From Candidatus Poribacteria bacterium (GTDB taxonomy: Bacteria > Poribacteria > WGA-4E > PCPOR2b), in the NCBI GenBank assembly GCA_965218095.1, contig OZ244587.1, positions 3,744,001 to 3,808,000 on the forward strand: DNA of 64,000 nt, in the 5' to 3' direction. Shown here piece after piece: positions 4,181 through 48,345 of the stretch. Each line of letters opens with the position of its first letter. The first letter of the stretch is position 1. The notes beneath the pieces are model-generated. The model saw only the letters and a list, made by a program, of their open reading frames with translations, was not told the origin of the DNA and searched no databases. A program made the translations under genes and the position numbers.

Positions 4181-7100
4181 CTAGCGCGCAAGCTTCTCAG
4201 TCGTAGGTTCCATCTGTGAAATCCAATCGCGCAACAGTTGTATAGCTTGGCGATCGACCACCGAAGTCGCCAGGGGCGGCATTTGGCCGGCGCCTCGACG
4301 CAACACACGATGGTAAATAATCGAACGGTCGGGGCTGCCGGGCGCAATGAGCATCGCGTTGGAGATTCCAAATGTGTCGTGCTGCGGGCGGACACCGAAG
4401 GTGTAGGTTTTATCCCGCTCTGCGGTGAACTCCAGCACGATATGCGCGTTGCCTCCCCCTGTGTGGACATGGCAATTTGCGCAGGCAGCATGCAGATAAG
4501 AACGGGCCCTCGCGTCAAGGGATTCTTGAGGGTTGTACGGATTAACCAGCTTGGGGTACTCCTCCGGGCGCTTCGGCAGCGGCTTGGTGAAAATGCCAAG
4601 ATGATCTAGCGTCCGAAGTTGGTTGTCGGATACGCCACCATAATCATGCGTCTTGTTCATTTGCATTGTGTTGAGCCCCAACACATAGTTGGCTGCGCGG
4701 CTGTGGCAGACCATACACTCAACCCGGCTGGGATAGCGCCAGATCTGTTCCCGACTCCCTTCAGGGGACTTTGAATCCTGAATCGTAAGGATACGATCCA
4801 TTCCATCAGCCGCCACAAGCGTCGCATCGGTCTGCTCGTCATTCCAGACATAGGAATATCCCACCCACTCGTTCTGCTGTCGGGTGAGCAACCGCGTTTC
4901 AATCCGATGCCTAGAGGTTGCTTTGAATCGAGATTGCTCTGAATCCTCGACGCTTCGTCGGGATGCAATCGGGGCAGGATTTCCTGCTTCCAGATCGAGC
5001 GCAAAGGTTTGAACCAGGACCGTCCCATCGGGAAAGGTCCACCCATGCGATGTCGTGAAGTCGATCTGGGAATCGCCCGGAAGCCCAATGAACCGCTCCA
5101 TGTGTGCACCATCAGCCCACAACGGCGCGTTGACCGAGTAGGGAATCAGCCCTGGAACGGTCTGATGATCTTTGACCGATGCGAACAAGCCAGTTCCACT
5201 CAGTCGAGTGGGGAATTTTGCGGTCAGTTCGTCTTTGGGTTTATGCTCCAACTGAAAGATTCCGCTGGCGAGATCTGCGATTAATATCTCGTCGTTGTGG
5301 TCAATCCCAAAGCTCACAATCTGCAGCGTCGTGTCGGCGATTTCCCTGTGCCAGATAATCCGCTCCCCATTGTGACGTAACGCCCAAATCTTGCCGGTCG
5401 CGTAGTCACCATAGATATAGGCGCCACGCAGCTCTGGAAACTTCGATCCGTAGTACACAACCCCACCGGTGATGGAGCGAGATTCGGAGTGGGGATGTTC
5501 GACCGTTGGCTTGACGATGGGCGTAGGGCCAGGTTTTCGGTTCAGGAAGAACGGATGGCTACCTTCGTAGAGACTCCAACCGTAGTTATCCCCACGACGA
5601 ACAAGGTGAATCATCTCCCACTGATCTTGCCCGACATTTCCCACCCAAAGATGTCCTGTTTCTTGATCAAAGGTCATACGCCAGGGATTGCGGATACCGT
5701 AGGCCCAGATTTCGGGTCGTGCGCCTTCAAAGCCGATGAAAGGGTTGTCGGCGGGGACCGAATAAGCTCGTCCTGCTTCGGGATGATCGACGTCGATCCG
5801 CATGATCGTCGCAAGCACATTGCTTATATCTTGGCCCTTGGGTTCTCTGTCATAACTTCCGGGCTGGCCGGTGAGGTTTGTATCGGAGTCCATGGCGCCG
5901 TCGCCCGCAGCAATGTAGAGGAATCCATCGGGACCAAACGCCAGATCGCCGCCATTGTGGTTGTTCGACTGCCACTCCATGATAATCGGCTCAGAATGCT
6001 TGTCACAGTGATACGGCGGCTGACGCTCGACACTGCATCGCGATATACGGTTCTTTGTTTCTGTAACTTTTCCACCCTTGGGCCCGTTGCTGACGACATA
6101 AAGGTCGCCGTTCTTTTCGTAATCAGGATGGAATGTCAAGCCATAGGTCTCGCGGCCCGTGTCGAAAAGGAGTTCGGCCTCATCAACCTCCGGATCATCC
6201 GTGAAGCGACGAATCTTACCGCCTAGCTCTATCACCAGGAGTTGGTCTGTACCCGGTTCGCGCTCAATGTACACCGGTTGATCCAATTTCAGTTTGGTGA
6301 ACGTCTGTTTGGGGTGCAATGACAATGGCGGGCCGGTTTCCGCCGTTTTGCCGGTCAGGGTTGATAAAAACGCGAGTAAATCATAATACTCAGCGACCGA
6401 CAGTATCTGTGAGTAGTTGGTCGGCATCGGGGAAGTAACATTGAGTCGTTTACCCAAAGCACGACTATACTCCGGATCGCCGGCGAGGTCTTCGTACTTG
6501 TCGAAGGTTCGTTCGCTGCCATCAATTTTTAAGGTAATTTCAGCCTCGTTTTCAGAGATGAGCTCTCCAACAATCGGTTCATCATTATATGGGGTCACAA
6601 TCGCCTGGACCTTCACATTCGATTTTGACACCGTTTGCACCCCATCCCCAACCTTGAGTGTGATGTTTTTGTCAGTCGCTTCAATGAGATCGCCGCTTAT
6701 CGGCGTTGTGGAATCAGCAGGCATGACCTGAATCCAAAAATATCCCTTTTCCTTTAGATTGACCAACGCCTCGATAGGTTCGGGGTCAAGTTCGCTCAAT
6801 AGAATGGCCCTTTCCGTTTCAGCCCCGTTAGCTCCTTTGATACGCAGAACGATTTTTTCGTTATCCCCGATAAGATCGGGATTCAAATTGCTCTGAATCC
6901 TCGATGCTTCATCGGGAGCAACCTGCGAGACGAGCGTTCCTTGAATCACAGCGCCGCCTGTTCGCACAGTTGCTAGACCGTATCCGCGCACAATTCCGGC
7001 ATTTGGTTTAAGGATTGATTCTTCGATATAACGGACACTATTTAATGTGGCAATATCCGTTAAATCAGGCCCCAGAACAATTTCAACCCCCTCGTCAAGG

Positions 7101-7924
7101 CGCTGATTGACTGGTTTTTCAATCCCATCGACATTGTGGCATGCAATACATTTTGCAGTATTGACGAAGACATTTTTGCCGCGCTCGATATCGCCGGCAA
7201 GAACGGGTGGACGCGCCTCCATCTCCTTTGCAACACTTTGTATATCAATGAAAGGTTCAAACGGCGTCAGATCTACCTCTCCTCCCTGGCTCTGAAGGAA
7301 CGCGATGACAGCTTCAATCTCCAAATTCGATAAACTGATCGGGGGCTTCCAGGCCGGCATCATAGTTTTGCCATAACCAGGGACAAGGAATGCGTCCGGG
7401 GCATATAGGGACTCAATGAGATACGCTTTCGACCCCATGTCCGGTTTCGGCTTCGCCGAGAATCCCGCGAAGCGGGGCTTTCGTGTCGCGGCTCTCGCCC
7501 CGATATCCGTGAGATCAGGGCCTCTACTCTTCGGCGCCGAGGGATTCAGCGTGTGACAGGAGTAGCACGTCCCCTTTCCGTTAAAGATTGCTTTCCCTGC
7601 TTCGACAAATGCCTCTGGCTTACGTTCTATGCTTGAAAGATTGACTTGCGTTTCAGGTACGATGCTATCGGCGTCAGGAAACCCCACAACGTGGGATGTC
7701 GTCCACGGAATGCGCCGATCAATTCCGTAAGGTTTCTGGTTCTCCGTGTTTTTGCCGGAAGACGCTTCTCCATGGTTGTCCGACATCAGCATAACACCTA
7801 CCCCAAACGCCAAAAGCACACCGGCGACCGTACAGAAACGGGCAAGACGCAAAACATGCCTGGCAATTTGCCGTCCATCGCGGAGGCTGGCAGGTCGGAG
7901 AAGCATAAAACCGATGATAGGCAT
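4181..7924 (-). CDS. Multiheme cytochrome c / PQQ-dependent glucose-sorbosone dehydrogenase (GSDH) fusion protein
   Basis: Four CxxCH motifs (CYSCH, CIACH, CMVCH, CANCH); GSDH motifs HNGGDLAFGPDGFLYI, EIWAYGIRNPWR, SITGG; C-terminal YSVNAPLWADGA...MPPLA region. Start placed at ATG 7924 (GAGGT RBS) because the track start 7966 lies inside the predicted promoter. Confidence 0.88.
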   Translation of the reverse strand: MPIIGFMLLRPASLRDGRQIARHVLRLARFCTVAGVLLAFGVGVMLMSDNHGEASSGKNTENQKPYGIDRRIPWTTSHVVGFPDADSIVPETQVNLSSIERKPEAFVEAGKAIFNGKGTCYSCHTLNPSAPKSRGPDLTDIGARAATRKPRFAGFSAKPKPDMGSKAYLIESLYAPDAFLVPGYGKTMMPAWKPPISLSNLEIEAVIAFLQSQGGEVDLTPFEPFIDIQSVAKEMEARPPVLAGDIERGKNVFVNTAKCIACHNVDGIEKPVNQRLDEGVEIVLGPDLTDIATLNSVRYIEESILKPNAGIVRGYGLATVRTGGAVIQGTLVSQVAPDEASRIQSNLNPDLIGDNEKIVLRIKGANGAETERAILLSELDPEPIEALVNLKEKGYFWIQVMPADSTTPISGDLIEATDKNITLKVGDGVQTVSKSNVKVQAIVTPYNDEPIVGELISENEAEITLKIDGSERTFDKYEDLAGDPEYSRALGKRLNVTSPMPTNYSQILSVAEYYDLLAFLSTLTGKTAETGPPLSLHPKQTFTKLKLDQPVYIEREPGTDQLLVIELGGKIRRFTDDPEVDEAELLFDTGRETYGLTFHPDYEKNGDLYVVSNGPKGGKVTETKNRISRCSVERQPPYHCDKHSEPIIMEWQSNNHNGGDLAFGPDGFLYIAAGDGAMDSDTNLTGQPGSYDREPKGQDISNVLATIMRIDVDHPEAGRAYSVPADNPFIGFEGARPEIWAYGIRNPWRMTFDQETGHLWVGNVGQDQWEMIHLVRRGDNYGWSLYEGSHPFFLNRKPGPTPIVKPTVEHPHSESRSITGGVVYYGSKFPELRGAYIYGDYATGKIWALRHNGERIIWHREIADTTLQIVSFGIDHNDEILIADLASGIFQLEHKPKDELTAKFPTRLSGTGLFASVKDHQTVPGLIPYSVNAPLWADGAHMERFIGLPGDSQIDFTTSHGWTFPDGTVLVQTFALDLEAGNPAPIASRRSVEDSEQSRFKATSRHRIETRLLTRQQNEWVGYSYVWNDEQTDATLVAADGMDRILTIQDSKSPEGSREQIWRYPSRVECMVCHSRAANYVLGLNTMQMNKTHDYGGVSDNQLRTLDHLGIFTKPLPKRPEEYPKLVNPYNPQESLDARARSYLHAACANCHVHTGGGNAHIVLEFTAERDKTYTFGVRPQHDTFGISNAMLIAPGSPDRSIIYHRVLRRGAGQMPPLATSVVDRQAIQLLRDWISQMEPTTEKLAR
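4916..4972 (-). repeat. Nested micro-insertion (27-bp unit containing a 30-bp unit at 4932-4961), in frame, +19 aa
   Basis: Minus strand gCC[CCGATTGCATC{CCGACGAAGCGTCGAGGATTCAGAGCAATC}TCGATTCAAAGCAACC]tct; removal gives NPA-SRHRIETRL. Confidence 0.85.
5837..5869. repeat. 33-bp in-frame insertion flanked by TGGCC direct repeats
   Basis: TGGCC at 5832-5836 and 5865-5869; protein TGQ[PGSYDREPKGQ]DIS. Confidence 0.6.
6867..6923 (+). repeat. Nested micro-insertion (27-bp unit containing an inverted 30-bp unit at 6886-6915), in frame, +19 aa
   Basis: tCC[CCGATAAGATCGGGATTCA{AATTGCTCTGAATCCTCGATGCTTCATCGG}GAGCAACC]tg; removal gives LVSQ-DNEKIV. Confidence 0.88.
7443..7475 (-). repeat. 33-bp double-hairpin micro-insertion, in frame, +11 aa
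   Basis: Minus strand gCC[CCGCTTCGCGGGATTCTCGGCGAAGCCGAAACC]gg; removal gives ATRKP-DMGSK. Confidence 0.78.
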
Positions 7925-7956
7925 CGCAAAAACCTCGATAAAAGATTGACAAGCAC

Positions 7957-7985
7957 AATTTATCACATTTCATCATTTCCGTCAA
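7957..7985 (-). promoter_or_regulatory. Putative sigma70 promoter of the cytochrome/GSDH gene
   Basis: Minus strand TTGACG-17 nt-TAAATT with TGn extension. Confidence 0.6.
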
Positions 7986-8011
7986 GCAAAAATTCTCCCT
8001 TTTCTTTTAAC

Positions 8012-8041
8012 TTGACGCTGCAACTTAAAGTGTGATAAACT
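8012..8041 (+). promoter_or_regulatory. Putative sigma70 promoter of the DUF1326-like gene (back-to-back with the previous one)
   Basis: TTGACG-18 nt-TAAACT with TGn extension. Confidence 0.55.
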
Positions 8042-8117
8042 CCCCTAACAAGACGCACATGCAGCCATTTGTGTGTGGATGCTCACTTTTAAATCTGATA
8101 TTCAGAAGGGAGATAAG

Positions 8118-8771
8118 ATGATGACTAAGGTAACCCTGACGGCAATTGCGCTTTTACTGACCGTAGCCGGTGCATTGGCTACGCAACCCGAAACCGTGCA
8201 GGGCGAGTATTTGGAAGCCCGATCTGTCAGTGTCTATGTCGGGGCATGCCACTACGGGGCTGAGTACGTCGAAGGCGGCAGGGAGGCAACCCTCGTTTGG
8301 AATATCCGCCAAGGGACCTGGAAAGGTATCTCACTGAAGGGATTGACCGTTGTTGCAGTGGTCACAGCACAGAACAATCTTGCGATTGATACCAACACAC
8401 GTCGCAGCGTCCTATATGTCGATGAAAAGGCGACATCGGAACAGCGTACCGCCTTAGTAGATCTGATGACCGAGAAACGCAGTGAACTCCTCGGCGAGGT
8501 CGTTAGCACGGAGAGCGCGCCAATCACTTTCACTAAGGAAGGTGTGAAATATGATCTGCGGGTTGGGAAGGTGCTAACACTATCCGTTTCGCGCTACCCT
8601 TGCCAAAACTGTACCCAGCCGCACCAGATCTGGTACAAGCCGCTGGAACAACTTGATACCCCTATCGTCGGTAAATCAACCTCCTATTGCTATCAAGACA
8701 AAATTCTCTCCGTCACTTGGAATTGTGGTGAGGACACGAACAACGTTTTCGTTGGAGATTTTGCAATGTAG
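8118..8771 (+). CDS. Secreted DUF1326-like protein
   Basis: Signal peptide MMTKVTLTAIALLLTVAGALA; GEYLEARSVSVYVGACHYGAE motif; GGGAGA RBS. Confidence 0.7.
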   Translation: MMTKVTLTAIALLLTVAGALATQPETVQGEYLEARSVSVYVGACHYGAEYVEGGREATLVWNIRQGTWKGISLKGLTVVAVVTAQNNLAIDTNTRRSVLYVDEKATSEQRTALVDLMTEKRSELLGEVVSTESAPITFTKEGVKYDLRVGKVLTLSVSRYPCQNCTQPHQIWYKPLEQLDTPIVGKSTSYCYQDKILSVTWNCGEDTNNVFVGDFAM

Positions 8772-8826
8772 AAATTAGGAGGTAGGAGAGGCTCATGTCG
8801 AAAGAATCAGTGCAGAGTAGCTCAGA

Positions 8827-8859
8827 GAAACCGAGTTTTTGGCAAAAACTCGGTTTCTT
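8827..8859. repeat. REP-like palindrome, possible terminator; related copy near 12272-12304
   Basis: AGAAACCGAGTTTTTG-G-CAAAAACTCGGTTTCT perfect stem; AGAAACCGAATGTTTCAGAAAAACTCGATTTCT at about 12272. Confidence 0.7.
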
Positions 8860-9174
8860 TGTACTATTTCTTAACATGAGCAATAGGAGATAAGATAGAT
8901 GGCGATAAAGGCGATAAAGGTATCACTAATCAATATGAAAGGCGGAGTTGGGAAAACAACGCTTGCCGTGAATCTTGCTTGGCAATTCGCTGCTGATGCT
9001 GATATGAACGGATGGGGAAAAAGGGTCTTGCTGGTTGACCTTGACCCCCAGTTTAATGCAAGCCAATATGTGCTTGGTGGCCGCCGGTATAAGGAAAGTA
9101 TCCATGAAGCAAAAGCACCGACAGTTCAGCACATATTTGAGGCACGCGAAACTCCATTAGATCATAACTTAGTT

Positions 9175-10285
9175 GAGGGGTGTGCATAAATATAGTTGAC
9201 ATAATCAAGCCAAAAGGGTTTCCTATTGTTATCATAGCAAAAGGAGCCCCAATATGGTACAAAGACCAATGTTGGCTGATTATGTCACTCTTATTATGCA
9301 ACTCTTTGAGCAGTTTATGCAACACCGTATTGACAAACCAGGTGTCACACACGCAAAACCATTGACATATTCAACCACCTCGTTTATCATTTTCTTCATG
9401 TTGATGCAGTTTCACGGCATCTATGGCTTCAAAACGCAATGGCGGTGGCTAATCAATCACCCAGAAGTGTTACAAATGCTGGGGTGGCAACAGCCCCCTC
9501 ATCGAACCACGATTGCACGTCGCTATAAGGCATTATATGAAGTGATAGAGGCATTTGTATTGTTTATCGGTCAGTATGCCACTGACTTGTCCCAACAATT
9601 CAACTTGGCTCATCTGGTAGCCGACAAAAGTTTATTTAAGGCACGAGGACCCGTCTGGCATCAAACTGACCGCAAAGCAGGAAAAGCACCTAAACATCTA
9701 CGCAACCTCGACACCGATGCCACGTGGAGCAAGAGTGGTTATCATGGCTGGGTCTATGGCTACGGACTTCACATTATCTGCACACAAGGTGCGTTCCCAA
9801 CACTGATAACTGTGCACCGTGCGTCGGTCTCCGAAAGTTGGGCGATAGATGCTAAAGCGTCTGAGATTCTGACACAACTTTCACCGCAGACACTCACTGC
9901 CGATGATGCCTATACCCAAGCAGACCGTATCCGTCGTTGGGCGAAGGCACAAGTCGCTTTGATTACCCCGGCACTTAGATGGACAAAGGGACGGTTTGCC
10001 AAGGCGTATCATCGATTTATCAACCAACCCAAGCAGCGTCTCTGTTTAAGCAAACGTCGCAGTTCGGTTGAACCGTTGTTTGACTTGATTGCTAAAGTGA
10101 TAGGCACCACTCCTCAACAGAAGCAGTTACCGGTCAAGGGGTTTTTCAATGTACGCTGTTGTTTAGCTATCGGGGTGTTATCAGTGCAAGTGGCTATGAT
10201 TGCCAATGCCATATGGAAGTTACCTGCTCGCAATATCTCTCATATGGCGGCTGTTTTCCAATGAACTACTATGCACACCCCTCTA
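9175..10285 (+). mobile_element. DDE insertion sequence (IS4/IS5/IS982-like superfamily, family not assigned)
   Basis: 14-bp TIR GAGGGGTGTGCATA (9175) / TATGCACACCCCTC (10270-10283); 6-bp direct repeat TTAGTT on both sides. Confidence 0.9.
9254..10264 (+). CDS. DDE transposase
   Basis: VADKSL, DTDATWSKSGYHGWVYGYGLH, LTADDAY and RRSSVEPLF motifs; lies between the TIRs. Confidence 0.88.
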   Translation: MVQRPMLADYVTLIMQLFEQFMQHRIDKPGVTHAKPLTYSTTSFIIFFMLMQFHGIYGFKTQWRWLINHPEVLQMLGWQQPPHRTTIARRYKALYEVIEAFVLFIGQYATDLSQQFNLAHLVADKSLFKARGPVWHQTDRKAGKAPKHLRNLDTDATWSKSGYHGWVYGYGLHIICTQGAFPTLITVHRASVSESWAIDAKASEILTQLSPQTLTADDAYTQADRIRRWAKAQVALITPALRWTKGRFAKAYHRFINQPKQRLCLSKRRSSVEPLFDLIAKVIGTTPQQKQLPVKGFFNVRCCLAIGVLSVQVAMIANAIWKLPARNISHMAAVFQ

Positions 10286-10884
10286 TTAGTTATTCGTAAT
10301 GTGCCTATACACCTGTACGATAACTATGGTTACCTATATTCTGTATCAACTTCACGACTGGATTTGATCCCTTCACATTTGGAATTAGCCTATGTCTTAC
10401 GCCAGCCAGAACAAAAGGAACATCTATTGGCGGAGTTTATCTCTGAAGTCGAAAACAGATACCACCTGATATTCTTTGATTGTCCGCCAACTGAGTCGCT
10501 GTTTACTACCGCAGCGTATCTGGCGAGTGATTATCTGCTGGTGCCGGTCAAGCCTGAATTTCTGTCTACAGTTGGACTTCCATTGTTAGCTCGATCAATG
10601 AAAGACTTCAATGACAAATTCCCAGACAGAAAACTCCAGCTTGCAGGGATTGTTTTTAATACAGCCACAGAATATATTCCAGAAGAGATGCAAGCTAAAC
10701 AATGGGTGCGCCAACTGGCAGACAAGCATAACTGGCACGTATTTGAGAACGAAATAAGCTACTCACGTTCATACGCCAAGGGGGCACGCGAAGGCCAACC
10801 AATCTCCCGTACCTCCTATGCCAAGGGGTACCGGGTCGATGAGTTCCGTGCCTTCGCTCATGAATTCCAAGTTAGAATCGGCTT

Positions 10885-11412: not shown

Positions 11413-11581
11413 TTGAAATTTTGCGATATAGACCACTCAGATAGGAGGGGCATCCCCCATCCTTCCTCTCTTTTTTCTTGCCCAACCAACTCCTATTCTC
11501 AATCCAAATTCCAAGAACAGTGGATCTACTGTTCTTTTTTCCTTACATAACCGTTGCTTTAACAACTCAGAGGAGATATCA

Positions 11582-12262: not shown

Positions 12263-12353
12263 GAGCCAGTAAGAAACCGAATGTTTCAGAAAAACTCGAT
12301 TTCTGGGCATGTCCCACGGACGTGGCTTCCGTGGGCAAAGGAGGAGATTTGCA

Positions 12354-13964: not shown

Positions 13965-13980
13965 TGCGAGGAAGAAAAAA

Positions 13981-20554: not shown

Positions 20555-21403
20555 ATGAACGTTATCGTAACAAGATTAAGTATAGTCAGCATCAACTTAT
20601 TCATCATCAGCCTAATGTTGACGGGTGGAAGCGATGCCAAAATTGAACTTGAAGACGTTGTTGCCACGTGGCTCTTTGAAGAGGAGAAGGAGGGTGGTGT
20701 TGGTGCCGATACATCCGGCAACGGTCATCATGGCGAGCTGGTGAATAGACCGAAAGTGGTAGACGGAAAGTTCGGCAAGGCATTGCAGTTTAATGGAAAG
20801 GACAATCTTGCCGCTGGTGCGAGCTTTGTCAAGGTTCCACACGATGAAGCCCTAAACCTGCCTGATGCCGTGTCCATTTCGGCATGGGTTATCAGACGCA
20901 AATTTGACTTTTTAACTCATGAGGCAAGATCACAGACGATTCTTGCCAAAGGTGGAGATTGGGCGCCTTTGACACATTCCGGCTACGGATTCGCCCTCCA
21001 CGAGGTTCTGGACAATATGTTTTTTTTCTATTTTAAGGATGGTTGGCGGGGCGCAGCGACGGTTCCAGACCAGGAATGGCATCATTATGCAGTCACTGCC
21101 AAAACAAGAGACAAAGATCCAGCCCTGTATATTGATGGTGAATTACAGACAATTGTACATCGGGGTGGTAAAGCTAATAAGATCGAGTGGACGCTTAATG
21201 AGGGACCGTTAGAGATTGGCGGACAAACACGAGCAGATGAATGGTTCAGCTCAAACATTATTGACGACGTTGGCCTCTTCAATAGAGTCCTGACTCAAGA
21301 GGAAGTTCAACGGCTCACGAAAGGACTTCAGACTGCCGTCTTCGCTGTTTCTCCATCGGGCAAACTTGCCACAACCTGGGCTGAGATTAAACAAAGGAAG
21401 TGA
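20555..21403 (+). CDS. Secreted LamG-like jellyroll protein (copy 1)
   Basis: Signal peptide, DTSGNGHHG, GKFGKALQFNG, WHHYA, LYIDG, IDDV; C-terminus AVSPSGKLATTWAEIK. Confidence 0.92.
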   Translation: MNVIVTRLSIVSINLFIISLMLTGGSDAKIELEDVVATWLFEEEKEGGVGADTSGNGHHGELVNRPKVVDGKFGKALQFNGKDNLAAGASFVKVPHDEALNLPDAVSISAWVIRRKFDFLTHEARSQTILAKGGDWAPLTHSGYGFALHEVLDNMFFFYFKDGWRGAATVPDQEWHHYAVTAKTRDKDPALYIDGELQTIVHRGGKANKIEWTLNEGPLEIGGQTRADEWFSSNIIDDVGLFNRVLTQEEVQRLTKGLQTAVFAVSPSGKLATTWAEIKQRK

Positions 21404-21461
21404 GCCGGGTTGAGTAACAAAAGTGGTTTGGGAACAAACAGTTAGCGACTTTTCGGCATAT

Positions 21462-21521
21462 ATTGCTCCTGATGAAGCATTGAGGATTCAGAGCAATCTG
21501 AATGCCGGTGCTTCATCGGGG
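21462..21521. repeat. Intergenic nested micro-insertion pair (30-bp unit 21469-21498 inside an inverted unit)
   Basis: ATTGCTC[CTGATGAAGCATTGAGGATTCAGAGCAATC]TGAATGCCGGTGCTTCATCGGGG. Confidence 0.85.
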
Positions 21522-21698
21522 CTTGTCAAACAACAGAAGGGGATTCTTGGAGAGGAGGGTCCGAGGGAACGAGTCAAAACTCCTCGCTCCCTGGCGTCTA
21601 TTTTCCACGATGGATGAGAAGTAGGATAAAACGGACCGTGACATCGATCCTACCGAGTTTTCGAGAGCGCTCAAACCCCAAAAAGGAGGTAATCAAAG

Positions 21699-22550
21699 AT
21701 GAACAGTATCATAACAAAATTAAACGGCGTCGGCATTAGCTTACTCATCATGAGTCTGATGTTTCCAGGCAGAAGTGAGGCCAAAATTGAACTTGAAGAC
21801 GTTGTTGGCGTGTGGCTCTTTGATGAAATCAAGGATAAGGTCGCCAAGGATGCCACCGGCAACGGTCATGATGGAGAGTTAATTAATAAATCGAAGCATG
21901 TAGAGGGGAAGTTCGGCAAGGCATTGAAGTTTAATGGAAAGGACAATCTTGCCGCTGGTGCCAGTTATGTCAAGGTGCCACACCATGAGGACCTGAACCT
22001 TCCTGATGTCGTGTCCATTTCGGCATGGGTTATCAGACGCGAATTTGACTTTTTGGTTCATGAGGCAAGAGCACAGGTAATCCTTGCAAAAGGTGGAACC
22101 TGGGCGTGGTTGCGAGAGTCTGGTTACGGATTAGCCCTCCATGAGGTTTTAGACAATATGTTTGTTTTCTATTTTAGGGATGGCTGGCGGGGCGCAGCGA
22201 CTGTCCCAGATAAGGCGTGGCACCATTATGCAGCCGTTGCCCAAAAAGGAAAGGCAGAGCCAATTCTGTATATTGATGGTGAGCCGCAGCCAATCGTACA
22301 TAAGGGTGGTGAGGCGAACAAGATGGCTTGGACGCCCCTTGAACAGCCATTGCCATTAGAAATTGGCGGACAAACACCGGGTGATGAATTCTACAGCTCA
22401 AACATCATTGATGACGTTGCCATCTTCAATAGAGCTCTGACTCAAGAGGACGTTCAGCGGCTCATGAAAGGGATTCAAACTGCCGTCTTCGCTGTTTCCC
22501 CATCGGGCAAACTTGCTACCACTTGGGCGGAGATTAAACAAAGGAGGTGA
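21699..22550 (+). CDS. Secreted LamG-like jellyroll protein (copy 2)
   Basis: Paralog of copy 1; AGGAGGT RBS; same C-terminal motif. Confidence 0.92.
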   Translation: MNSIITKLNGVGISLLIMSLMFPGRSEAKIELEDVVGVWLFDEIKDKVAKDATGNGHDGELINKSKHVEGKFGKALKFNGKDNLAAGASYVKVPHHEDLNLPDVVSISAWVIRREFDFLVHEARAQVILAKGGTWAWLRESGYGLALHEVLDNMFVFYFRDGWRGAATVPDKAWHHYAAVAQKGKAEPILYIDGEPQPIVHKGGEANKMAWTPLEQPLPLEIGGQTPGDEFYSSNIIDDVAIFNRALTQEDVQRLMKGIQTAVFAVSPSGKLATTWAEIKQRR

Positions 22551-27341: not shown

Positions 27342-27388
27342 TTGTAGTAGCGCAATTACTTACATCCCGATCCATCGGAGTCATTGCG
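27342..27388. repeat. GTAG-type REP with a 24-bp micro-insertion (27358-27381) in its loop
   Basis: TTGTAGTAGCGCAATT[ACTTACATCCCGATCCATCGGAGT]CATTGCG; uninterrupted form at 52845-52880. Confidence 0.8.
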
Positions 27389-27720
27389 TGTTTCCCCGTG
27401 ACGTGTATAGTTACTTCACCACAAATACTATTCCTCTCTCACGATCACTTTTGAAATTCTTGTACAAAACTCTGAGTCCAAAAAGAAACCAATCTGTTCG
27501 TTGTACGCTATTCGTACCTAACGAGAAAGAAGGTGCGCTAGTCCAGTTAGCACGGTACAGCCCAGTTGACAAACTCAAAAATAGTTTATTCAGACCAAGT
27601 GCACCACCGTTCATGTGGTTTCTGTTAAAAGTTTCAACCGGCTTTTCGATACGCTTTGCTACTCAACCGACATTCGCTAACTGAAAAACTCGTGTGGTTC
27701 CACGTTTTGCACAATACACA

Positions 27721-39383: not shown

Positions 39384-39467
39384 TAGTAACCTTCGGCAAT
39401 ATGAGCCGGAATGGCTAAAGCCGACTTGCGAATCGTTTGTCCCTCTTTTCAGAACTGTGGTTTCTGT

Positions 39468-40807: not shown

Positions 40808-40834
40808 CTCGATCTTATCGGGATTCAGAGCACC
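40808..40834 (+). repeat. 27-bp micro-insertion in the IS701 transposase (introduces TGA)
   Basis: CACC[CTCGATCTTATCGGGATTCAGAGCACC]; removal restores HKV-KLF. Confidence 0.85.
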
Positions 40835-40951
40835 TTGTGATGCTTGGGAAATCCGCTGATTTTGAGAAGTTTCCCGCGTCGGATTTTGGTCTCACTCCAC
40901 TGCAATCGATCAACACGCGGGTAAGGCTTTTGCGCATTGGAATCATCCACC

Positions 40952-40978
40952 CCGATAAGATCGAGATTCGAAGCAACC
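40952..40978 (+). repeat. 27-bp micro-insertion in the IS701 transposase, in frame +9 aa
   Basis: CACC[CCGATAAGATCGAGATTCGAAGCAACC]tg; protein NRQV[ASNLDLIGV]DDS. Confidence 0.87.
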
Positions 40979-41092
40979 TGACGATTGGATTTCAGCGGGC
41001 AATAGTAATGTTTTCGGAGCCGCTCAATGTGTATCATCAAATCTTTGGTGGCATACCAGCAATCCATAAGGAGAGTTGCTTGTGATAAACTA

Positions 41093-41930: not shown

Positions 41931-42525
41931 TAGTAGGGATAACATCTCCTTAACGTAATCTAATTTGCTCTTGCCATCCCCCTGTGGGTCGTACAGAAAC
42001 GGTCTAAGGCGGGATTGACATAGACACAAGTCACCACACCGATACCGTTGCTTTCGCGTTTCCACTATACTGACGACGCACCAACGCGATGTTCCGGGCG
42101 TAGCGTTTGTCCAAAACGGTGTCATCAAAGATGACATTTCCCTGTTGGGTTTGCACAATGTGCGGTTTGACATTTTCCCATACCAAGCGAGGCAGGATAC
42201 GCTCACCGGCGAGATAACGGTTTATCATATCATGACTGAAACTTCTGCTATGGTCAGCGAAATGGGTTAAGGTATAGTTGATTGGGCTGCTGAGCAAATA
42301 CTGACAGTAGTTGAGTCGAGTGGGTTTGGCCATATTCACCTCCATGCTGCTCATTCTACTGCTTTTCACCGCTTGTGTCTATTTATTTTGCGTAAGTCCT
42401 AATTAATATATGATTAACAGTTGTTAAAAGTTTCCTAAAAAATCACCCCAAAACAAACAGGCAGATTACATGTTAATTTTATCATAACTAATGTTAGGTC
42501 AAAACATCCCCAATGCTATCGTGGA

Positions 42526-43419
42526 CTACTCCTCAAGAGTGAACCGATATGGAATCCGTATCCGCATAGGCACGGCTGTTTTCCCTTGCTTGGCTGGAGC
42601 AAAGCGAGAGGCTTTCAGGGCTTTAACCGCCGCCTCATCGCAGCCGAATCCTAACGATTCCACCACCTGAATGTCTCTTGCCATTCTGTCCACGCCGATT
42701 GTCGCTTCAAGCATGACCACGCCTTCCTTTTGAGCGCGGCGGGCGGGTTCCGGGTAATCTAGCTTAACCCCTTTGATGAAGTGAGGTCGCTGGACGATTT
42801 CACCTGGTGCCTCAGTGGGGAGGTCAACGAGGGTTAGATCTGGAGCAGTCTCCAACTCAAGTTTCGAGATAATCAATGTAGAGCGCTGGAGTTTAAGTTT
42901 TGGCATCGTCGAAGGGATTTCTGCCCGGTAATCCTCCGCCAGATTTTTATCAAGCCTTTCTGCAATCGAAACCCCACCATCGGAAGGAACACCCGCCGGG
43001 ATAGACAGATTGTCACTAGGAATGGTAAACCGCGCATCCTCCGATGGAATTTCGACCGCTGTTGTGGTTGGCTGCCGTAACTGTGTCGTCCGAATTCGTA
43101 GGGATTTGGGGGGCGTTACGCTTTTTATTTTTCGAGGCGGCAGGCGGCGTTTGGCTTTCGGGGCAGCCCGCACTTTCGTAAGTTCCACGATAACAGCATC
43201 ATCCTCGACGTTTGCCGCTTGAACGATGTAGAGGGTTGCCACCAACGCCGCAATGAGATGGAGACCGAGAGAGGTCAGCAACGCAAAACGCTTGGAGGTA
43301 AGGGCCTGATTGCCTTTTGCCGGATCCGCAGCCATTTGCACGGCAGAAATCGCCTTTTTCTGTTCTCGATCTAGTGAAAGGGGCTTCAACGGAACAGAAG
43401 CCGGCAGGCCAACTTTCAA
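42526..43419 (-). CDS. TonB family energy transducer
   Basis: TM helix SLGLHLIA, Pro-rich linker, YPEPARRAQKEGVV, GFGCDEAA, RFAPAKQ; start uncertain (ATG 43335 possible). Confidence 0.88.
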   Translation of the reverse strand: MKVGLPASVPLKPLSLDREQKKAISAVQMAADPAKGNQALTSKRFALLTSLGLHLIAALVATLYIVQAANVEDDAVIVELTKVRAAPKAKRRLPPRKIKSVTPPKSLRIRTTQLRQPTTTAVEIPSEDARFTIPSDNLSIPAGVPSDGGVSIAERLDKNLAEDYRAEIPSTMPKLKLQRSTLIISKLELETAPDLTLVDLPTEAPGEIVQRPHFIKGVKLDYPEPARRAQKEGVVMLEATIGVDRMARDIQVVESLGFGCDEAAVKALKASRFAPAKQGKTAVPMRIRIPYRFTLEE

Positions 43420-43631
43420 CCGCTTTCGGCACTGGACGATTTCCTTCGCCGATCTTGTTTGGCACTTAGATATTCGGGAAGTGTGTTGTTTTGGATATTC
43501 ATCATAGCTTTTACGTCCAGGGTTGGAAGTTCAGGCACAGCAGGGGTTTACTTCCTTCCATCCTTCCTTTCTTTTTCGCTGTTAGTGGGACAAGAACAGA
43601 GAAAATTGATTTTTCAGAGGTCATTGACAAC

Positions 43632-45977
43632 TCACCCTGACTCTGCCGGTTCGATTCGTTGCTGCGATTCCGCTTCGTCCGAAATCTGGCCCCAGTCCCA
43701 AAGTTGCGGGATATACTCGACGTTTGCCCACATTTCTGCCTGGTCAGCATAGTGTGGACTTCCAGGGTGGCCCGATGCTCCCAACGGCACAATCCATCGG
43801 GACTTCGTCCAATCTGACGGGTCGTGGATGTAACGATTGACGGACATGCCCGTGGCGATGAATTCATTGTGGAGCGCGTAACTCCCGGCAAGCGGCGTGT
43901 CGCCGTCACCGTGAATCGGGACCGAGGGAGGATTCAGCAGTTCGGCAAGTTCCGGAAACACCAACGAGAGCGGGTGTTGCGGACACGTGTGGTGGAGACT
44001 GCCCCACTGCCACTTCGACATATCGTCACCGAGCCGTTCTCTGAGGTCCGCGACAGCACGCCGGAGTGCGGAAGCCAACACGCCCCACCAATCGTGCCCG
44101 GGCGGCAGCATGGAATTGTCACCCTGCTCAAGTGCCAGATTCATCGCCACGACAATCTGACGGACATGCGCGTCGCCCCCTGCGACGCCTGAAAATACCT
44201 CCTCAGCCATATCTCCCATCAGGTAATCGAGAAGGAAGCGGATGACTTGCGTCTTGGTCTTGGCGTAAATTAACGGCTGGGCTAGGTCGCGGTCTATACT
44301 GTAGTCCCACGCTCGCAGCAAAGCCAACGCCTCTGCTGAATCTTCGTCAAGCGGCGTGACGCCAACCAGCGCTTCTGTGAAGATACGCGCCGGATTTGAA
44401 ATGCGTTCGGCGTGAATACGCGCCATATCGTCGACGGTTGCCGTTCCCGGTTTGAGCGCAAGAATCCGTGTTTGAACGCGTCGGGCGCGATACTCAGATG
44501 TGAAAGACAGCCCCACATAGTACGGGTAGTCGTGACCAGCGACACGCTGGTTGCAGGTGACTGCGTACCCGGTGTCCGGGTTGATGGCTTTTGGAAGTTC
44601 GTTGTGGGGGATGTAGCCGTTCCACTCATATTCGCCGGTGCAGCCCGGCACTGCCCGCCAGCCGTTTGATTCGGGCCGAATCGGAATTTTGCCCTCGTGC
44701 AGGTAACCAAAGTTTCCATACACATCGCCGACAGCGTAGTTATTCACACGGTCTGTCCAGTTGCGGAACGCTTCATGCAATTCATCCACGGACTTCGCTC
44801 GCATGGCACCGCGTGCGGCATCGACCCACTGGGAGCCCGCAATGAGACCTGGATCGCTGATTGCCACAGCCGTTCCTGATGCGGGGGGCCCGGCGACAAC
44901 GGGACCGTGATGGGTAATTGTCACCTCAAGCGGTACCGAGTCAGCACCACGCACCTCGATTGTTTCGCTGAGAACCTCGGCGGGCCGCCATTCGTCCTTG
45001 AACAGATACTCACGACCATTTGGCCCCTCACGGAAGCATTCAATGAAGAGGTCTTGCGTATCCGCCCCACCATGCGTCATCCCCCACGCGACATATTCGT
45101 TGTGGCAGAAGTGGAGTGTGCCCGGCATCCCCGGCACAGCGTGGCCAATAACCGTGAATTCGGGGCACGATAGGTGAACTTGGTAGTAAACGCTCGGCGT
45201 GTCAAGAGCGCGATGCGAGTCACCGCACACCAGTGGCAGTCCCGATTTGGTAAGTTCGCCGGAAATCGACCAGCCATTTGACCCCGCGTCCACCTCATCA
45301 AGCCAGTTGGCCGCTTCAGCAGCCTCGCTCAGTTCATCAAGCCCCTCAAGCGGAGGCCCTTCGTAAATGTCGCTAGGCGGTACAGTGAGTAGGTGACCAT
45401 TCGGGTATCCTTTCATGAGTTCAGCGAGCTTCTCCGGCCCGAGCGCCTTTACCAAGCGCATCCGGAAGAGCTTCGGTTCGAACGTTCCCAAGAGCGTATT
45501 GCGCATCTTGTAGATGGCAAGACAATGCCAGTTCTCCCAGCGTTCGGGCGTTTGGTCAAGAATTTTGTACTCAATAGGCAGCGCTTGGCATGTGTTGAGG
45601 AAAGCATTCACACCAGCCGTGTACGCATCAACCATAACCTTGGCTTTAGGGCTGCTGATTTTGTAGTCGAGCTTTGCGGTGCGGCCCATTCCCGCCGTTC
45701 GCAACAGACGGTCTTGAGCAACTCCACTTGGTCCGGCGAACTCCGCCCATCTCCCGAGCACCCGATGCCGGTCAAAATCCATGTGCCAAAGCCGATCCTG
45801 AGCGGTTACGAAACCCTGTGCAAAAAATAGGTCATTCTCGTCCTTCGCCTTGATGTGAGGAATGCCCCACCGGTCCCGATACACTTCAACGGGGTTGTGG
45901 AGTCCCGAAAAGCGCATTGTGGTGGTGACATTGGGCAGGGCAGCTTTCAAGTCTTTTTCCGTAATTTCCACTGGCAT
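43632..45977 (-). CDS. Penicillin acylase family Ntn-hydrolase
   Basis: RDRWGIPHI, AQGFVTAQDRLWHMD, nucleophile GSNGW, GASGHPGSPHYADQ; no signal peptide. Confidence 0.94.
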   Translation of the reverse strand: MPVEITEKDLKAALPNVTTTMRFSGLHNPVEVYRDRWGIPHIKAKDENDLFFAQGFVTAQDRLWHMDFDRHRVLGRWAEFAGPSGVAQDRLLRTAGMGRTAKLDYKISSPKAKVMVDAYTAGVNAFLNTCQALPIEYKILDQTPERWENWHCLAIYKMRNTLLGTFEPKLFRMRLVKALGPEKLAELMKGYPNGHLLTVPPSDIYEGPPLEGLDELSEAAEAANWLDEVDAGSNGWSISGELTKSGLPLVCGDSHRALDTPSVYYQVHLSCPEFTVIGHAVPGMPGTLHFCHNEYVAWGMTHGGADTQDLFIECFREGPNGREYLFKDEWRPAEVLSETIEVRGADSVPLEVTITHHGPVVAGPPASGTAVAISDPGLIAGSQWVDAARGAMRAKSVDELHEAFRNWTDRVNNYAVGDVYGNFGYLHEGKIPIRPESNGWRAVPGCTGEYEWNGYIPHNELPKAINPDTGYAVTCNQRVAGHDYPYYVGLSFTSEYRARRVQTRILALKPGTATVDDMARIHAERISNPARIFTEALVGVTPLDEDSAEALALLRAWDYSIDRDLAQPLIYAKTKTQVIRFLLDYLMGDMAEEVFSGVAGGDAHVRQIVVAMNLALEQGDNSMLPPGHDWWGVLASALRRAVADLRERLGDDMSKWQWGSLHHTCPQHPLSLVFPELAELLNPPSVPIHGDGDTPLAGSYALHNEFIATGMSVNRYIHDPSDWTKSRWIVPLGASGHPGSPHYADQAEMWANVEYIPQLWDWGQISDEAESQQRIEPAESG

Positions 45978-46063
45978 TGTTTTCTTCCTCTGCAGATAAT
46001 ATGATTTCTCGTAGCGTTACACGGTTGTCCTGCATCATCCATGGACGTTTATTCTAGCTTGCA

Positions 46064-46831
46064 TTACTGCGCGACTTCGGTACGCTTCTTCTGCCAACGC
46101 TCATACCAGTCTAGCAACTCAGGCGTTGGCGCGATATCGTGGATGGTGACGCGCTTACGGTCGGGCAGGTAATTTCCGATGTGCCAGCCGTTGGGATGAT
46201 AAAGCGCGAAATCGCCCGCGTCCATGGACAGCCGCACTGCCCGCGGCATGCCCTGGGCATATTCAAGGCATTTCCGCTCACGCTCTTCATAGGAGGCATT
46301 TTCGGGCGGCAGTGATGCTTCGGCAGCGGCAACCTCGTCAGGCAGATCATCTCGCAGGTAGCTCCCCGGCACGTACCAGGTACAGTTGTCCTCATACAAC
46401 GGACAGTTAATCTGATTGAACCACAGTGGGTCGTGGGCTAGATGGCGAAACTCCTCCACGTCTGGCACATTCGACGTCTCGCGGATGTCGCGGTGCCATT
46501 TGGTGCACCAAGGTTGTTCAGCAGGTTCAAGCAGAAGCCCGGTCCTGTTGAAGTGGCCCATCTTGTGTCGCGGTGTGAGCACCTTGCTGATAGCATCCGC
46601 AAGTGCTGGTAGGTCTGCGTAATCCTGAAAAGGCCTGAAATCGATGTCGTAGTTCGCAATGGGCTGAAGCCGTTGAGACTGTGGGCCATGCTGTTCGCGG
46701 GCATACGCATGCGCCTTCTTGGTCGCCCGGCGCAGGTCTTTGACGAGCGACGGCGGCAGAATCTGCCGAAACACTACATAGCCCTGCGTGCGATAATCGT
46801 GAATCATAGAATCACAGAATTGGAACGCCAT
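46064..46831 (-). CDS. PhyH family 2OG-Fe(II) oxygenase
   Basis: YRTQGYVV, WHRD, YVPGS, AGD...WHIG and R motifs. Confidence 0.85.
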   Translation of the reverse strand: MAFQFCDSMIHDYRTQGYVVFRQILPPSLVKDLRRATKKAHAYAREQHGPQSQRLQPIANYDIDFRPFQDYADLPALADAISKVLTPRHKMGHFNRTGLLLEPAEQPWCTKWHRDIRETSNVPDVEEFRHLAHDPLWFNQINCPLYEDNCTWYVPGSYLRDDLPDEVAAAEASLPPENASYEERERKCLEYAQGMPRAVRLSMDAGDFALYHPNGWHIGNYLPDRKRVTIHDIAPTPELLDWYERWQKKRTEVAQ

Positions 46832-46907
46832 GGCCGTTTTCCTCTTGGGTCTGTAAAATTTTTGTCAGATTCCTTACACACCTTTTCCTCTTAATCCCGT
46901 TGACTTT

Positions 46908-47927
46908 TCACTCGATGACTTCTTGCGCAATGACCATCATCGTATCACCCTTCTTGACGAGGGCTTGGAATTGCTGCATCAGAAGATACCCGTTGCGAGG
47001 GGCGTGAATCTCTAATCCGGGGCTGCCAACTCGTTCAAAATCGCAGATTCGCCCAACAAGCTGCCCCTGTTCCACAAAATTGCCAACTCTGAAAATCGGT
47101 TCAAAAACGCCGGTAATCGGCGCAGGGATGTACTCATCGAGATGGATTGCCGTTACTAACTTGGGAGGCGTGTCCCGATTCAAATCTATCTTCCTGATTT
47201 CCCCAGGCAGAATCTGATAGTGATGTAGCACATTCTTGATGCCCTGATAGGCATGCTGCAAGCCTTGATGCAGCACCCCGGCAGAATGTCCCAACTCGCT
47301 GCCGATGGTGACCTTGCCCATCGCTTCCGCCTCATCAGTCAACAATCCACTCGCCATCTCACTGGAGTATATCATGATAAATGGGGTGTCGAACAGGCCG
47401 GCAATATGTTTCATCTCCACGTACTGTTTAGGGTCATCGATCTGGTGAAACGAGGAGCATAGGGCAAATTCGGGCCCATTACCCGCCGAGTGAATGTCAA
47501 GTACGATGTTTACTAGCGGAAAGACCCTGGACGTTATGAAGTGGGCAATGCGGTACGTCAAAGTTCCTTTTGAGTCACCGGGGAAAGCACGGTTCATATT
47601 CACCCCGTCCTCCGGCGATTCACGGGTGCCGGCGTCACATGCTGGAACGTTCAAACGAGGAATCAGGATGACTCGCCCGCTAATTTCCGCCGGATCAAGC
47701 TCGTGCATCAGCCGCCATACTGCCACCTGCCCCTCATACTCATTGCCGTGTGTGCCACCGAAACAGACAACGTTCTTGCCTGGTCCGGCCGTCCCGTTGA
47801 TGACCGTCATCGGGACCAAGGTGTTGCCCCATGTTCCATCGTAGTGAAACGCCACTTCATACATCGATTTGCCAGGCTTCTCAAAATCGATGAGGTCGTG
47901 GTCGTGAATTGTTGTGACATCGTTCAT
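46908..47927 (-). CDS. Succinylglutamate desuccinylase / aspartoacylase family deacylase
   Basis: GGTHGNEYEG, NMNRAFPG, LDIHS, ELG motifs; C-terminal biotinyl-like GD. Confidence 0.92.
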   Translation of the reverse strand: MNDVTTIHDHDLIDFEKPGKSMYEVAFHYDGTWGNTLVPMTVINGTAGPGKNVVCFGGTHGNEYEGQVAVWRLMHELDPAEISGRVILIPRLNVPACDAGTRESPEDGVNMNRAFPGDSKGTLTYRIAHFITSRVFPLVNIVLDIHSAGNGPEFALCSSFHQIDDPKQYVEMKHIAGLFDTPFIMIYSSEMASGLLTDEAEAMGKVTIGSELGHSAGVLHQGLQHAYQGIKNVLHHYQILPGEIRKIDLNRDTPPKLVTAIHLDEYIPAPITGVFEPIFRVGNFVEQGQLVGRICDFERVGSPGLEIHAPRNGYLLMQQFQALVKKGDTMMVIAQEVIE

Positions 47928-47992
47928 CGCTTAAATATCTCCTTAAGAAAAGAATCAACCTCCCGAAGGTTCTAAACCTTCGGAACGCTTTA

Positions 47993-48130
47993 GGTTCTGT
48001 TGACATTTGATGGATTGAACCAATCCTGATGCACCTTGAGGCGATTTCGGATAACCGCCTGGGTTTTTGGCGGGTAGCGCGATGATTACAGCGTTTCCCA
48101 AATTCGCGATGGCAAAATGTCAACAGAACC
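47993..48130. mobile_element. 138-bp MITE with the IS5-copy TIRs
   Basis: TA-GGTTCTGTTGACATTT ... AAATGTCAACAGAACC-TA with a non-coding interior. Confidence 0.9.
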
Positions 48131-48181
48131 TAGGTCTTTCAAGGAAAATAATTCTCCCAGACTGCTCCCATCGGAGGGGTT

Positions 48182-48345
48182 CTCCCCCTTCGGCTGAGCT
48201 CAGGTCCAAGCCTTGCCAAGGGGGAGTTAGAGGGGGTTGGTGCTTTGCACCATTGCCAAATCCGACGGTTCGGATCCGGTTATGGCCCCGATGGATCGAG
48301 ATTCAAAGCGACTTGGATTTGGCAATCCAAGCCAAGCGAGTGGGA
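48182..48345. repeat. Cluster of REP-like palindromes carrying micro-insertions (48191-48214 and about 48288-48313)
   Basis: CTCCCCCTT[24 bp]GCCAAGGGGGAG; TTGCCAAATCC...GGATTTGGCAA enclosing CCGATGGATCGAGATTCAAAGCGAC. Confidence 0.75.

Follow-up and report, generated by a model that had tools for sequence, protein, structure and literature searches.

The window analysed here comprises bases 3744001-3808000 (64,000 nucleotides) of the 6.35-Mb single-contig genome of a Candidatus Poribacteria bacterium (G000; 50% G+C). It contains several copies of a very small repeat, called the unit in the following, which consists of a CCCGAT-loop-ATCGGG hairpin (5-7-bp G+C-rich stem, loop of 2-6 nt) and a conserved 12-nt tail, ATTCAAAGCAAC. 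A first-pass annotation of the window had listed at least 11 such units at eight loci and proposed that they are mobile micro-insertions which enter genes without shifting the reading frame. All eight loci were indeed occupied, and 11 units were counted. The tail is not common to all loci, however: at 7448-7480 it reads ATTCTCGG..., at 27366 there is no ATTCAAAGCAAC, and both loci represent sister families that share the hairpin. The features are listed below in window coordinates; positions elsewhere in G000 are given as genome positions.

4181-7966, minus strand: open reading frame (ORF) for a 1261-aa cytochrome-c / glucose-sorbosone-dehydrogenase-like protein, with three lineage-specific in-frame insertions that hold five units.
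4917-4975 (boundaries +/-2), minus strand: 57-nt in-frame insertion made of an outer 27-nt unit (CCCCGATTGCAT...CTCGATTCAAAGCAAC) and a nested 30-nt unit; encodes APIASRRSVEDSEQSRFKA.
4933-4962, minus strand: the inner 30-nt unit of this insertion, CCCGACGAAGCGTCGAGG + ATTCAGAGCAAT, found in the census; a sister copy lies at genome 5099603.
6866-6922: 57-nt in-frame insertion with an outer 27-nt unit on the plus strand (6866-6886 plus 6917-6922); encodes VAPDEASRIQSNLNPDLIG.
6887-6916, minus strand: the inner 30-nt unit, CCCGATGAAGCATCGAGG + ATTCAGAGCAAT, in opposite orientation within the outer tail, at ATTCAA^AGCAAC.
7448-7480, minus strand: 33-nt in-frame insertion of a sister family, CCCGC-TTC-GCGGG + ATTCTCGG + a second small hairpin; about 11 aa, KPRFAGFSAKP.
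21462-21521: intergenic composite of two units, recognised from sequence and ORFs, with an inner 30-nt plus-strand unit (21468-21497) in the tail of an outer minus-strand unit.
27366-27380, no strand assigned: CCCGATCCATCGGAG hairpin without the ATTCAAAGCAAC tail, in the loop of a palindrome (GCGCAAT...ATTGCG) that resembles a repetitive extragenic palindrome (REP).
40808-40834, plus strand: 27-nt unit, CTCGATCTTATCGGG + ATTCAGAGCACC, in a decayed insertion sequence (IS) transposase gene.
40951-40977, plus strand: 27-nt unit, CCCGATAAGATCGAG + ATTCGAAGCAAC, in the same decayed IS; its minus strand adds VASNLDLIG to the transposase frame.
48287-48312, plus strand: 26-nt unit, CCCGATGGATCGAG + ATTCAAAGCGAC, intergenic and not of 3n length, ahead of TTGGATTTGGCAAT in a REP-like inverted repeat.

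The closest relatives of the 1261-aa protein were found in metagenome-assembled genomes titled Candidatus Poribacteria, and its gene also occurs in an RNA library labelled sponge metagenome. We compared the gene with 13 orthologues (1186-1211 aa), nine of which belong to genus g4 (72-75% identical) and four of which are more distant. All 13 lack exactly 11, 19 and 19 residues of the 1261-aa protein, and each of the three insertions has a clean empty site in every one of them: ACNCGA^AARCCG for the 33-nt insert (7448-7480), TCACAR^GAYAAY for the 57-nt insert at 6866-6922 and AAYCCY^ACCTCY for the 57-nt insert at 4917-4975 (the caret marks the insertion point). Three further genes (genome 3129794, 2672477 and 3397864) each carry a 27-nt unit that is absent in five of five g4 orthologues. 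One of the three has a 27-nt unit of its own elsewhere in one g4 genome (L060), which is missing from four other g4 genomes and from G000. For the gene at genome 5214268 no alignment of the orthologues was obtained around its N-terminal unit, and the flank of the unit beside the G018 orthologue (L058) is not conserved between genomes. Orthologous empty sites had been proposed as a check on the idea that the units are inserted DNA; they are clean at all three inserts of the window gene, and the idea is borne out further by the three other genes and by empty IS and REP paralogues.

The window gene and its inserts were recovered in contigs of three DNA studies, with 0-3 differing letters per long contig piece. 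These contigs end at the repeats (4941-4963 and 6865-6922). None of their joints skips an insert; the listed joints, 4743-4824 and 6454-6604, have sides of less than 30 nt. One RNA-library contig covers 7250-7672 and runs across the 33-nt insert without a gap, and other contigs of this library cover further parts of the gene. An AlphaFold2 model of residues 300-1100 of the host protein, built on 14 sequences, reached a mean predicted local distance difference test score (pLDDT) of 36.7, too low to judge from it whether the inserts form surface loops.

Other insertions were noticed in the compared genes. Orthologues (L067, L068; G003, G018) of the gene at genome 3396100-3399045 contain a 30-nt in-frame insertion, SRSEDPDESG, that belongs to a sister family (TCCGTTCCGAGGAT + CCCGAC..GTCGGG hairpin) and is present in two of five g4 genomes and absent from G000. 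The TCCGTTCCGAGGAT family precedes some G000 units and resembles the 33-nt insert of the window, and similar copies of the latter lie in two other genes (genome 3687246 and 2120096). Besides its unit, the gene at genome 2671418-2674021 (L048) contains another 27-nt insertion, PAIETLGGG, which follows a CAA codon, and one of 60 nt that is rich in Gly and Arg. Five of five orthologues lack both, and no unit motif can be recognised in either.

Empty alleles were also found within G000, namely six IS3-type copies, one copy of the IS that carries the units at 40808 and 40951, and copies of REP-like repeats and of repeats resembling MITEs (miniature transposable elements with inverted repeats). In all 15 aligned filled/empty pairs that were gap-free across the junction, the insert measured exactly 25, 26, 27, 30 or 31 nt. 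The 40808 unit is present in two further IS copies (genome 944020 and 6251218) and has a gap-free empty paralogue at genome 2347773-2347884; that of the 40951 unit, likewise gap-free, lies at genome 2347649-2347764. At 27342-27393 the window itself holds the empty allele of a 25-nt unit (junction between 27359 and 27360), with filled paralogues at genome 2943115 and 4715991 and a gap-free alignment across the junction. The alignment of the window copy at 48287-48312 is ambiguous, and the exact 26-nt empty site is that of its sister copy at genome 4491050, compared with 338348-338428.

Target statistics were calculated for the 63 of 76 units in G000 that have distinct flank pairs. The base preceding the insertion is C in 54 and T in 8 cases, and the following positions are a pyrimidine in 57 (+1), T in 45 (+2) and G in 53 (+3). 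The preference for C and G has p values of about 1e-22 to 1e-24. Units are found in one fixed orientation between C and YTG (C^YTG), which reads CAR^G on the opposite strand, often with a Gln codon. The filled/empty comparisons covered six antisense genic units (five in G000, one in G014), of which five come after CAA or CAG; in G000 as a whole, a Gln residue precedes six of the 12 antisense units in genes. In most of the paralogous empty sites Y^YTG is already there, in single copy, so no target duplication takes place. The CC/TC direct repeat that the annotation had seen around the units does not represent a duplication but the target C beside the CCC of the stem. Where empty paralogues deviate (e.g. 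CCG for CTG), the filled copy shows the consensus, which we read as the choice of a fitting target copy and not as shifted ends.

The tail of one unit can itself receive another, which gives rise to the nested 57-nt composites. An uninterrupted outer unit of the 6866-6922 type is present at genome 5214266-5214306, and the architecture of this composite recurs at 21462-21521 in the window and at genome 4739562. The composite at 21462-21521 lies between two tandem paralogous genes of 282 and 283 aa with near-identical C-termini (window 20555-22550). IS elements and REP-like repeats harbour other units. One of these, in an IS4-like transposase, keeps the frame by its length and yet brings in a TAA stop. 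At genome 5866419 (cf. 3616370 and 1078979) we observed a chimeric IS whose left half is IS3-type (rve) and whose right half is IS4-like, joined exactly at a common 27-nt unit, which points to recombination between units that reside in separate elements.

The unit is a genuine dispersed repeat. Its enrichment is weak inside the window alone, where CCGATNNNATCG has five matches against 0.86 expected (equalled in 1 of 100 shuffles) and ATTCRRAGCAA with at most one mismatch has 11 against 6.4 expected (equalled in 10 of 100 shuffles). Genome-wide, where the annotation had proposed to scan for the motif, the enrichment is decisive: the 12-mer GATTCAAAGCAA occurs in 52 copies (24 + 28) where 0.76 are expected, CCCGATAAGATCGGG at 15 sites where 0.012 are expected, and about 60 of the 82 matches to ATTCRRAGCAA have the CCCGAT..ATCGGG hairpin just before them. 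The hairpin core CCGAT(N2-6)ATCGG was found in 366 copies, with roughly 30 expected by our own arithmetic, and since it stands in many flank contexts there are several sister families with one common hairpin. The window contains such a hairpin at 50538-50549, in another multicopy context (…AGCAGAGCCTGGTC…), and at 55102-55114, where it lies in the gene at 54175-55548, is followed by CGTTCAAAACC and may be a decayed unit.

The 76 units come from a census of G000 in which tails with at most two mismatches were accepted when preceded by a hairpin. This gave 131 candidates; 82 were retained by hairpin type, and six spurious ones were then removed. In the control with a reversed tail, a hairpin stood upstream of 38 of 446 tail-like matches. 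The commonest unit length is 27 nt and the second commonest 30 nt, within a range of 25-31 nt (hairpin 13-19 nt). Loops vary freely and include AAG and CTT, i.e. both loop orientations relative to the tail, and the stem shows two-sided, compensatory changes (CCCGAC/GTCGGG, CCCGC/GCGGG). The composites fold better than shuffled sequence, with -15.5 kcal/mol (z -4.1) for 6866-6922 and -11.1 kcal/mol (z -2.7) for the insertion strand of 4917-4975; a mutated single unit does not. Neither the window nor four metagenome loci gave an Rfam match at or above the gathering score.

Genic and intergenic units were separated on the basis of our own crude gene calls for G000 (5174 genes, 78.6% coding). Nineteen units lie in called genes, 15 with a length of 27 nt, three with 30 nt and one with 31 nt. 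Thus 18 of 19 are multiples of three, and the 31-nt exception sits in a doubtful 190-aa ORF. The 48 intergenic units comprise 23 of 27 nt, 12 of 30 nt, nine of 26 nt, two of 25 nt and one each of 29 and 31 nt, so that 35 of 48 are multiples of three; the remaining nine units overlap gene ends. Gap-free empty sites exist for the lengths 25, 26 and 31 nt. The annotation had considered a length of 3n to hold outside genes as well and to be possibly intrinsic to the element. It fails to hold there: the window copy at 48287-48312 has 26 nt, 13 of 48 intergenic units deviate, and lengths of 25, 26, 29 and 31 nt exist, almost only outside genes. Such variants do insert, yet none was found in a credible gene. 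We read the 3n rule in genes as selection, with 27 nt as no more than the most frequent length.

Each of the 19 units in genes is part of an open gene frame. Ten of the 12 antisense copies are in the phase that reads V/A-A-L-N/S-P-D-x-I/V-G, and two read SCFESRS.. instead. Both orientations, different frames and different peptides had been noted before, and this picture stands; units are also nested in one another. By our own codon reading the canonical unit is open in four of six frames, which is about what a random 27-mer would show, so no special coding adaptation is seen.

We then surveyed 176 genomes of the phylum for the exact 16-mer CGGGATTCAAAGCAAC, with one-mismatch counts kept separately and a reversed pattern as control. 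The 16-mer was present in 28 genomes, 25 of which are among the 28 genomes of family f1. G000 contains 38 copies, g2 29, the 20 genomes of g4 between 10 and 65 each, g7 seven and g6 two; g5 genomes have none or one, and g3 has none. The 147 genomes outside family f1 gave three single matches, and the reversed control gave none throughout. The repeat is therefore carried by about five genera of one Poribacteria family and is essentially missing from 147 other genomes. Stem and tail are identical across genera whose orthologues share 72-85% protein identity. At the same time, none of six compared genic sites of G000 is common with g4, and one g4 site is species-specific. Identical stems and tails at differing sites fit repeated amplification under constraint on stem and tail.

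Beyond these genomes, 55 metagenome stretches contain the 18-mer, and by our own reading about 20 of them hold a full canonical unit; a looser hairpin flag was positive for 28 of 58 matches (55 metagenome + 3 viral). The three exact 18-mer matches in viral contigs have no hairpin partner and were attributed to chance. About half of the 55 metagenome stretches were likewise rejected as chance or as an unrelated repeat of about 200 nt from one metagenome. In this repeat (L084, L090, L092, L096-L099, L103, L110, L125; contigs of 126-667 kb) the 18-mer lies within a ATCCCGAT...ATCGGGAT stem. Its host looks Bacteroidota-type, with a TonB-dependent receptor gene nearby, it has no Rfam match, and it is probably unrelated to the unit.

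We interpret the units as very small inserted DNA elements that are non-autonomous, form a lineage-specific family and have been repeatedly amplified in trans, and put the probability of this reading at roughly 70%. That they form a family of mobile mini-insertions is held with good confidence, while the class of the enzyme can be named with low confidence only. A trans-acting enzyme encoded elsewhere, specific for sequence and structure, would recognise hairpin and tail and amplify units repeatedly. The likeliest mode, by analogy, would be a single-strand hairpin mechanism of the IS200/IS605 type or of the type used by REP-associated tyrosine transposases (RAYTs), as suggested by insertion next to a short specific target, by the lack of duplication and by hairpin recognition. 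Target choice could be guided by two CAA triplets in the tail, which are complementary to the TTG target. Purifying selection would then leave only stop-free copies of 3n length in genes, where they would be translated as short peptides such as VALNPDxIG.

Several observations weigh against this reading. No mobiliser is visible in the window, as the annotation had stated, and none was found for the unit in G000. The annotation had also proposed to look for the unit beside a RAYT or TnpA(Y1) gene; the flanks of the four Y1_Tnp genes (PF01797) of G000 were checked and none adjoins a unit, while other hairpins flank all four. Across 31 genomes, the presence of Y1_Tnp does not follow unit abundance, and the domain is found in unit-less genomes too, a pattern that says little on a link. 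Two TnpB-like genes have no consistent link to the unit (one has a CCGATAAGATCGG hairpin with another tail about 1 kb upstream), and four PDDEXK_3 nuclease genes in defence-like islands, noticed beside two units, show no consistent adjacency. The unit has one hairpin, whereas the IS200/IS605 and REPIN (REP doublet forming hairpins) models use two. A lagging-strand mechanism predicts an orientation bias, and unit orientation was unrelated to local GC skew (p 0.36-0.82) in a genome whose skew is weak. No filled/empty variation was seen in the contigs of the three DNA runs, a weak negative since contigs drop rare variants. The excess of 3n lengths in genic over intergenic units is marginal and depends on the crude gene calls (Fisher p = 0.054; 0.014 without the doubtful ORF). 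Finally, some copies hitch-hike in IS or MITE-like repeats, and copy number thus exceeds the number of insertion events.

The search of G000 also yielded observations on its other repeats and islands. No convincing inverted unit pair flanking a gene was found. The cumulative GC skew has several turning points, with a minimum at about 2.5-2.7 Mb and local extremes at about 3.3-3.6 and 4.8 Mb; in a genome so rich in repeats, this irregularity could reflect rearrangements or misassembly. A Y1_Tnp gene at genome 3422249-3422581 has AGAAACCGAGTTTT...AAAACTCGGTTTCT hairpins on both sides in a REPtron-like arrangement (46 sites genome-wide) and adjoins a CRISPR array with about 115 repeats at 3424072-3435136; another array, with about 51, is found at 4.784-4.788 Mb. 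A CRISPR origin of the unit was rejected, as the repeats of the arrays at 3.424-3.435 and 4.784-4.788 Mb and of a three-repeat candidate at 2.10 Mb are unrelated to it and share only a general layout (a hairpin, then ATT.AAA). The cluster at genome 3518500-3531500 (L133) consists of genes for TPR proteins whose N-terminal domain is FRG or TIR, for an Eco57I-like methylase and for small PDDEXK_3 nucleases; composite hairpin units lie at the 3' ends of its TPR genes.

Could the units be an ordinary REP/REPIN family moved by an unlinked RAYT, i.e. a Y1 HUH transposase? Like REPs, they are short, dispersed, imperfect G+C-rich palindromes with a conserved single-stranded flank, and some are intragenic. 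G000 has four Y1_Tnp genes and other REP-like families, among them the AGAAACCGAGTTTT hairpins around one of these genes. The passages of Di Nocera et al. 2013 (PMC3733652) on GTAG- and CGTC-tagged families document REPs of 20-40 bp whose entire length falls within an ORF and contributes amino acids to its product, and REP dimers or groups in ORFs that encode 20-30 aa, compared with 19 aa for our 57-nt composites. REPs and REPINs with their RAYT have been described by Bertels and Rainey 2011 (PMC3116915). However, there is no GTAG or CGTC beside the stem of the unit, whose flank reads ATTCAAAGCAAC (other strand, at the head, GTTGCTTTGAAT), no Y1_Tnp gene of G000 is flanked by units, and the inserted entity is a single or nested unit (27-nt empty sites), not an inverted doublet. 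The unit family thus fails the definition of REPs. It also differs in its defined 4-base target, its fixed orientation and the 19 of 76 copies inside called genes. Together with the lack of correlation between Y1_Tnp presence and unit abundance, these points make a REP/REPIN family unlikely.

A second alternative dispenses with a dedicated enzyme and explains the units by template switching or short-patch gene conversion, with microhomology at C...YTG. The conserved C and YTG flanks could act as microhomology, the two loop orientations (AAG and CTT) are expected from palindrome-mediated template switching, and the IS3-type/IS4-like chimera is joined exactly at a unit. Microhomology should, however, vary the ends, whereas the insertion is the exact structural unit in 15 of 15 gap-free pairs. 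The strict orientation relative to the target and the conservation of stem and tail across genera, with loops left free, also speak against it, and we give this explanation little credence.

Still less probable is that the units are excision footprints of a larger transposon with termini CCCGAT... and ...ATCGGGATTCAAAGCAAC. A variable loop between short inverted arms would suit a footprint, and the genome is rich in IS and MITE-like elements, including one of about 820 bp that is present in about 110 copies. None of the 82 listed tail matches was seen with a distant hairpin partner, though, no long element bounded by both arms turned up (no dedicated scan was made), and exact-length nesting of unit in unit would be unexpected. 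The 820-bp element, which is the commonest repeat of G000, has inverted CTAGGTTCTGTTGACATTT ends (e.g. at about genome 4553880); this 19-mer occurs in 113 + 112 copies with a modal pair spacing of 800-820 bp, and one unit lies next to such an end. Two further readings can practically be dismissed, namely that the repeat is an assembly artefact or that selection maintains it for a function, be it as a hairpin bound by protein or RNA or as a useful peptide module: ten of 12 antisense genic copies do share the VALNPDxIG phase, and the RNA-library contig keeps the 33-nt insert, but copies in either orientation also occur between genes, in the loops of REPs and in transposase genes that are dead, one copy puts a stop codon into a transposase frame, the same inserts recur in contigs of three independent studies, and units are present in more than 25 genomes.

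Amplification in trans of an inserted element, our preferred explanation, invites comparison with known systems. The closest kinds are the intragenic REPs considered above and the small dispersed repeats (SDRs) of the Nostocaceae (SDR4-6; Elhai et al. 2008, Genome Res 18:1484). SDRs reportedly form hairpins, nest in one another and insert into genes. They are not known to have a mobiliser. Passages of PMC4390886 and PMC5861425 describe SDRs as presumably mobile repeats of 21-27 nt; SDR5 inserts between nucleotides 3 and 4 of HIP1 (PMC4390886), and SDRs are given as reported only in Nostocaceae (PMC5861425). As far as these passages go, the unit is similar in size (25-31 nt), in its dispersal and in its precise short insertion site. 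It differs in phylum and target (C^YTG) and probably in sequence; HIP1 itself is not enriched in G000 (156 sites, 194 expected).

The Rickettsia palindromic element (RPE) RPE-1 measures about 100-150 bp. Against this size the unit is 4-5 times smaller and belongs to an unrelated lineage, although both are in-frame palindromic insertions. IS608 and ISDra2 insert beside a short specific sequence without target duplication and depend on hairpins for recognition. Insertion of the unit at C^YTG (CAR^G) in fixed orientation and without duplication would resemble this behaviour of the IS200/IS605 group. Elements of that group carry hairpins at both ends and measure about 100 nt or more, whereas the unit has one hairpin in 27 nt, no linked TnpA was found for it, and no strand bias was seen against the weak GC skew. 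Insertion of RPEs into functional genes is cited in passages of PMC3184786 and PMC3733652, the former also reviewing in-frame fusions of small repeats. MITEs, as characterised in a passage of PMC3184786, have terminal inverted repeats and target duplications. Like them the unit is non-autonomous and multicopy and has filled and empty sites; as the annotation rightly held, it lacks terminal inverted repeats of the MITE type and has only an internal hairpin, an asymmetric tail and a flank that is single-copy in empty sites. The annotation had taken known analogues to be much larger, a view that is not supported by the intragenic 20-40-bp REPs and the 21-27-nt SDRs already in print, to the extent that the cited passages describe them. 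In the literature on small dispersed repeats, REPs and Poribacteria palindromes, no such Poribacteria repeat was described among the matches listed; judged by titles and the openings of abstracts, the Poribacteria papers among them deal with sponge microbiomes or CRISPR. The phenomenon is not new; novelty lies in lineage and sequence, in the defined target and in the comparative leverage.

How one-hairpin repeats of non-coding size are copied to new sites has been a question since the Nostoc SDRs. The unit provides a test bed in another phylum, with a 4-base target, exact empty sites, nesting and many complete long-read genomes, and its sharp boundary between sister genera (rich in g1, g2, g4 and g7, nearly absent from g5, g3 and the rest) allows the enzyme to be sought by phyletic profiling. 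In practical terms, units break short-read assemblies and can mislead gene callers and alignments. They also remodel proteins, with at least 19 copies in called genes of G000 and five in one 1261-aa enzyme, and selection on them filters length and reading phase. It is conceivable, if doubtful at present, that they represent, independently, the second ultra-small (25-31 nt), site-specific mobile DNA after the Nostoc SDRs, moved as a single hairpin by an enzyme, encoded by the host or by an element, outside the known transposase families, and that the 27- and 30-nt forms are successful as codon-neutral lengths. If so, the codon-neutral forms would open the coding 78.6% of the genome as a habitat, and the family would steadily supply otherwise conserved proteins with peptide loops specific to the lineage, such as VALNPDxIG.

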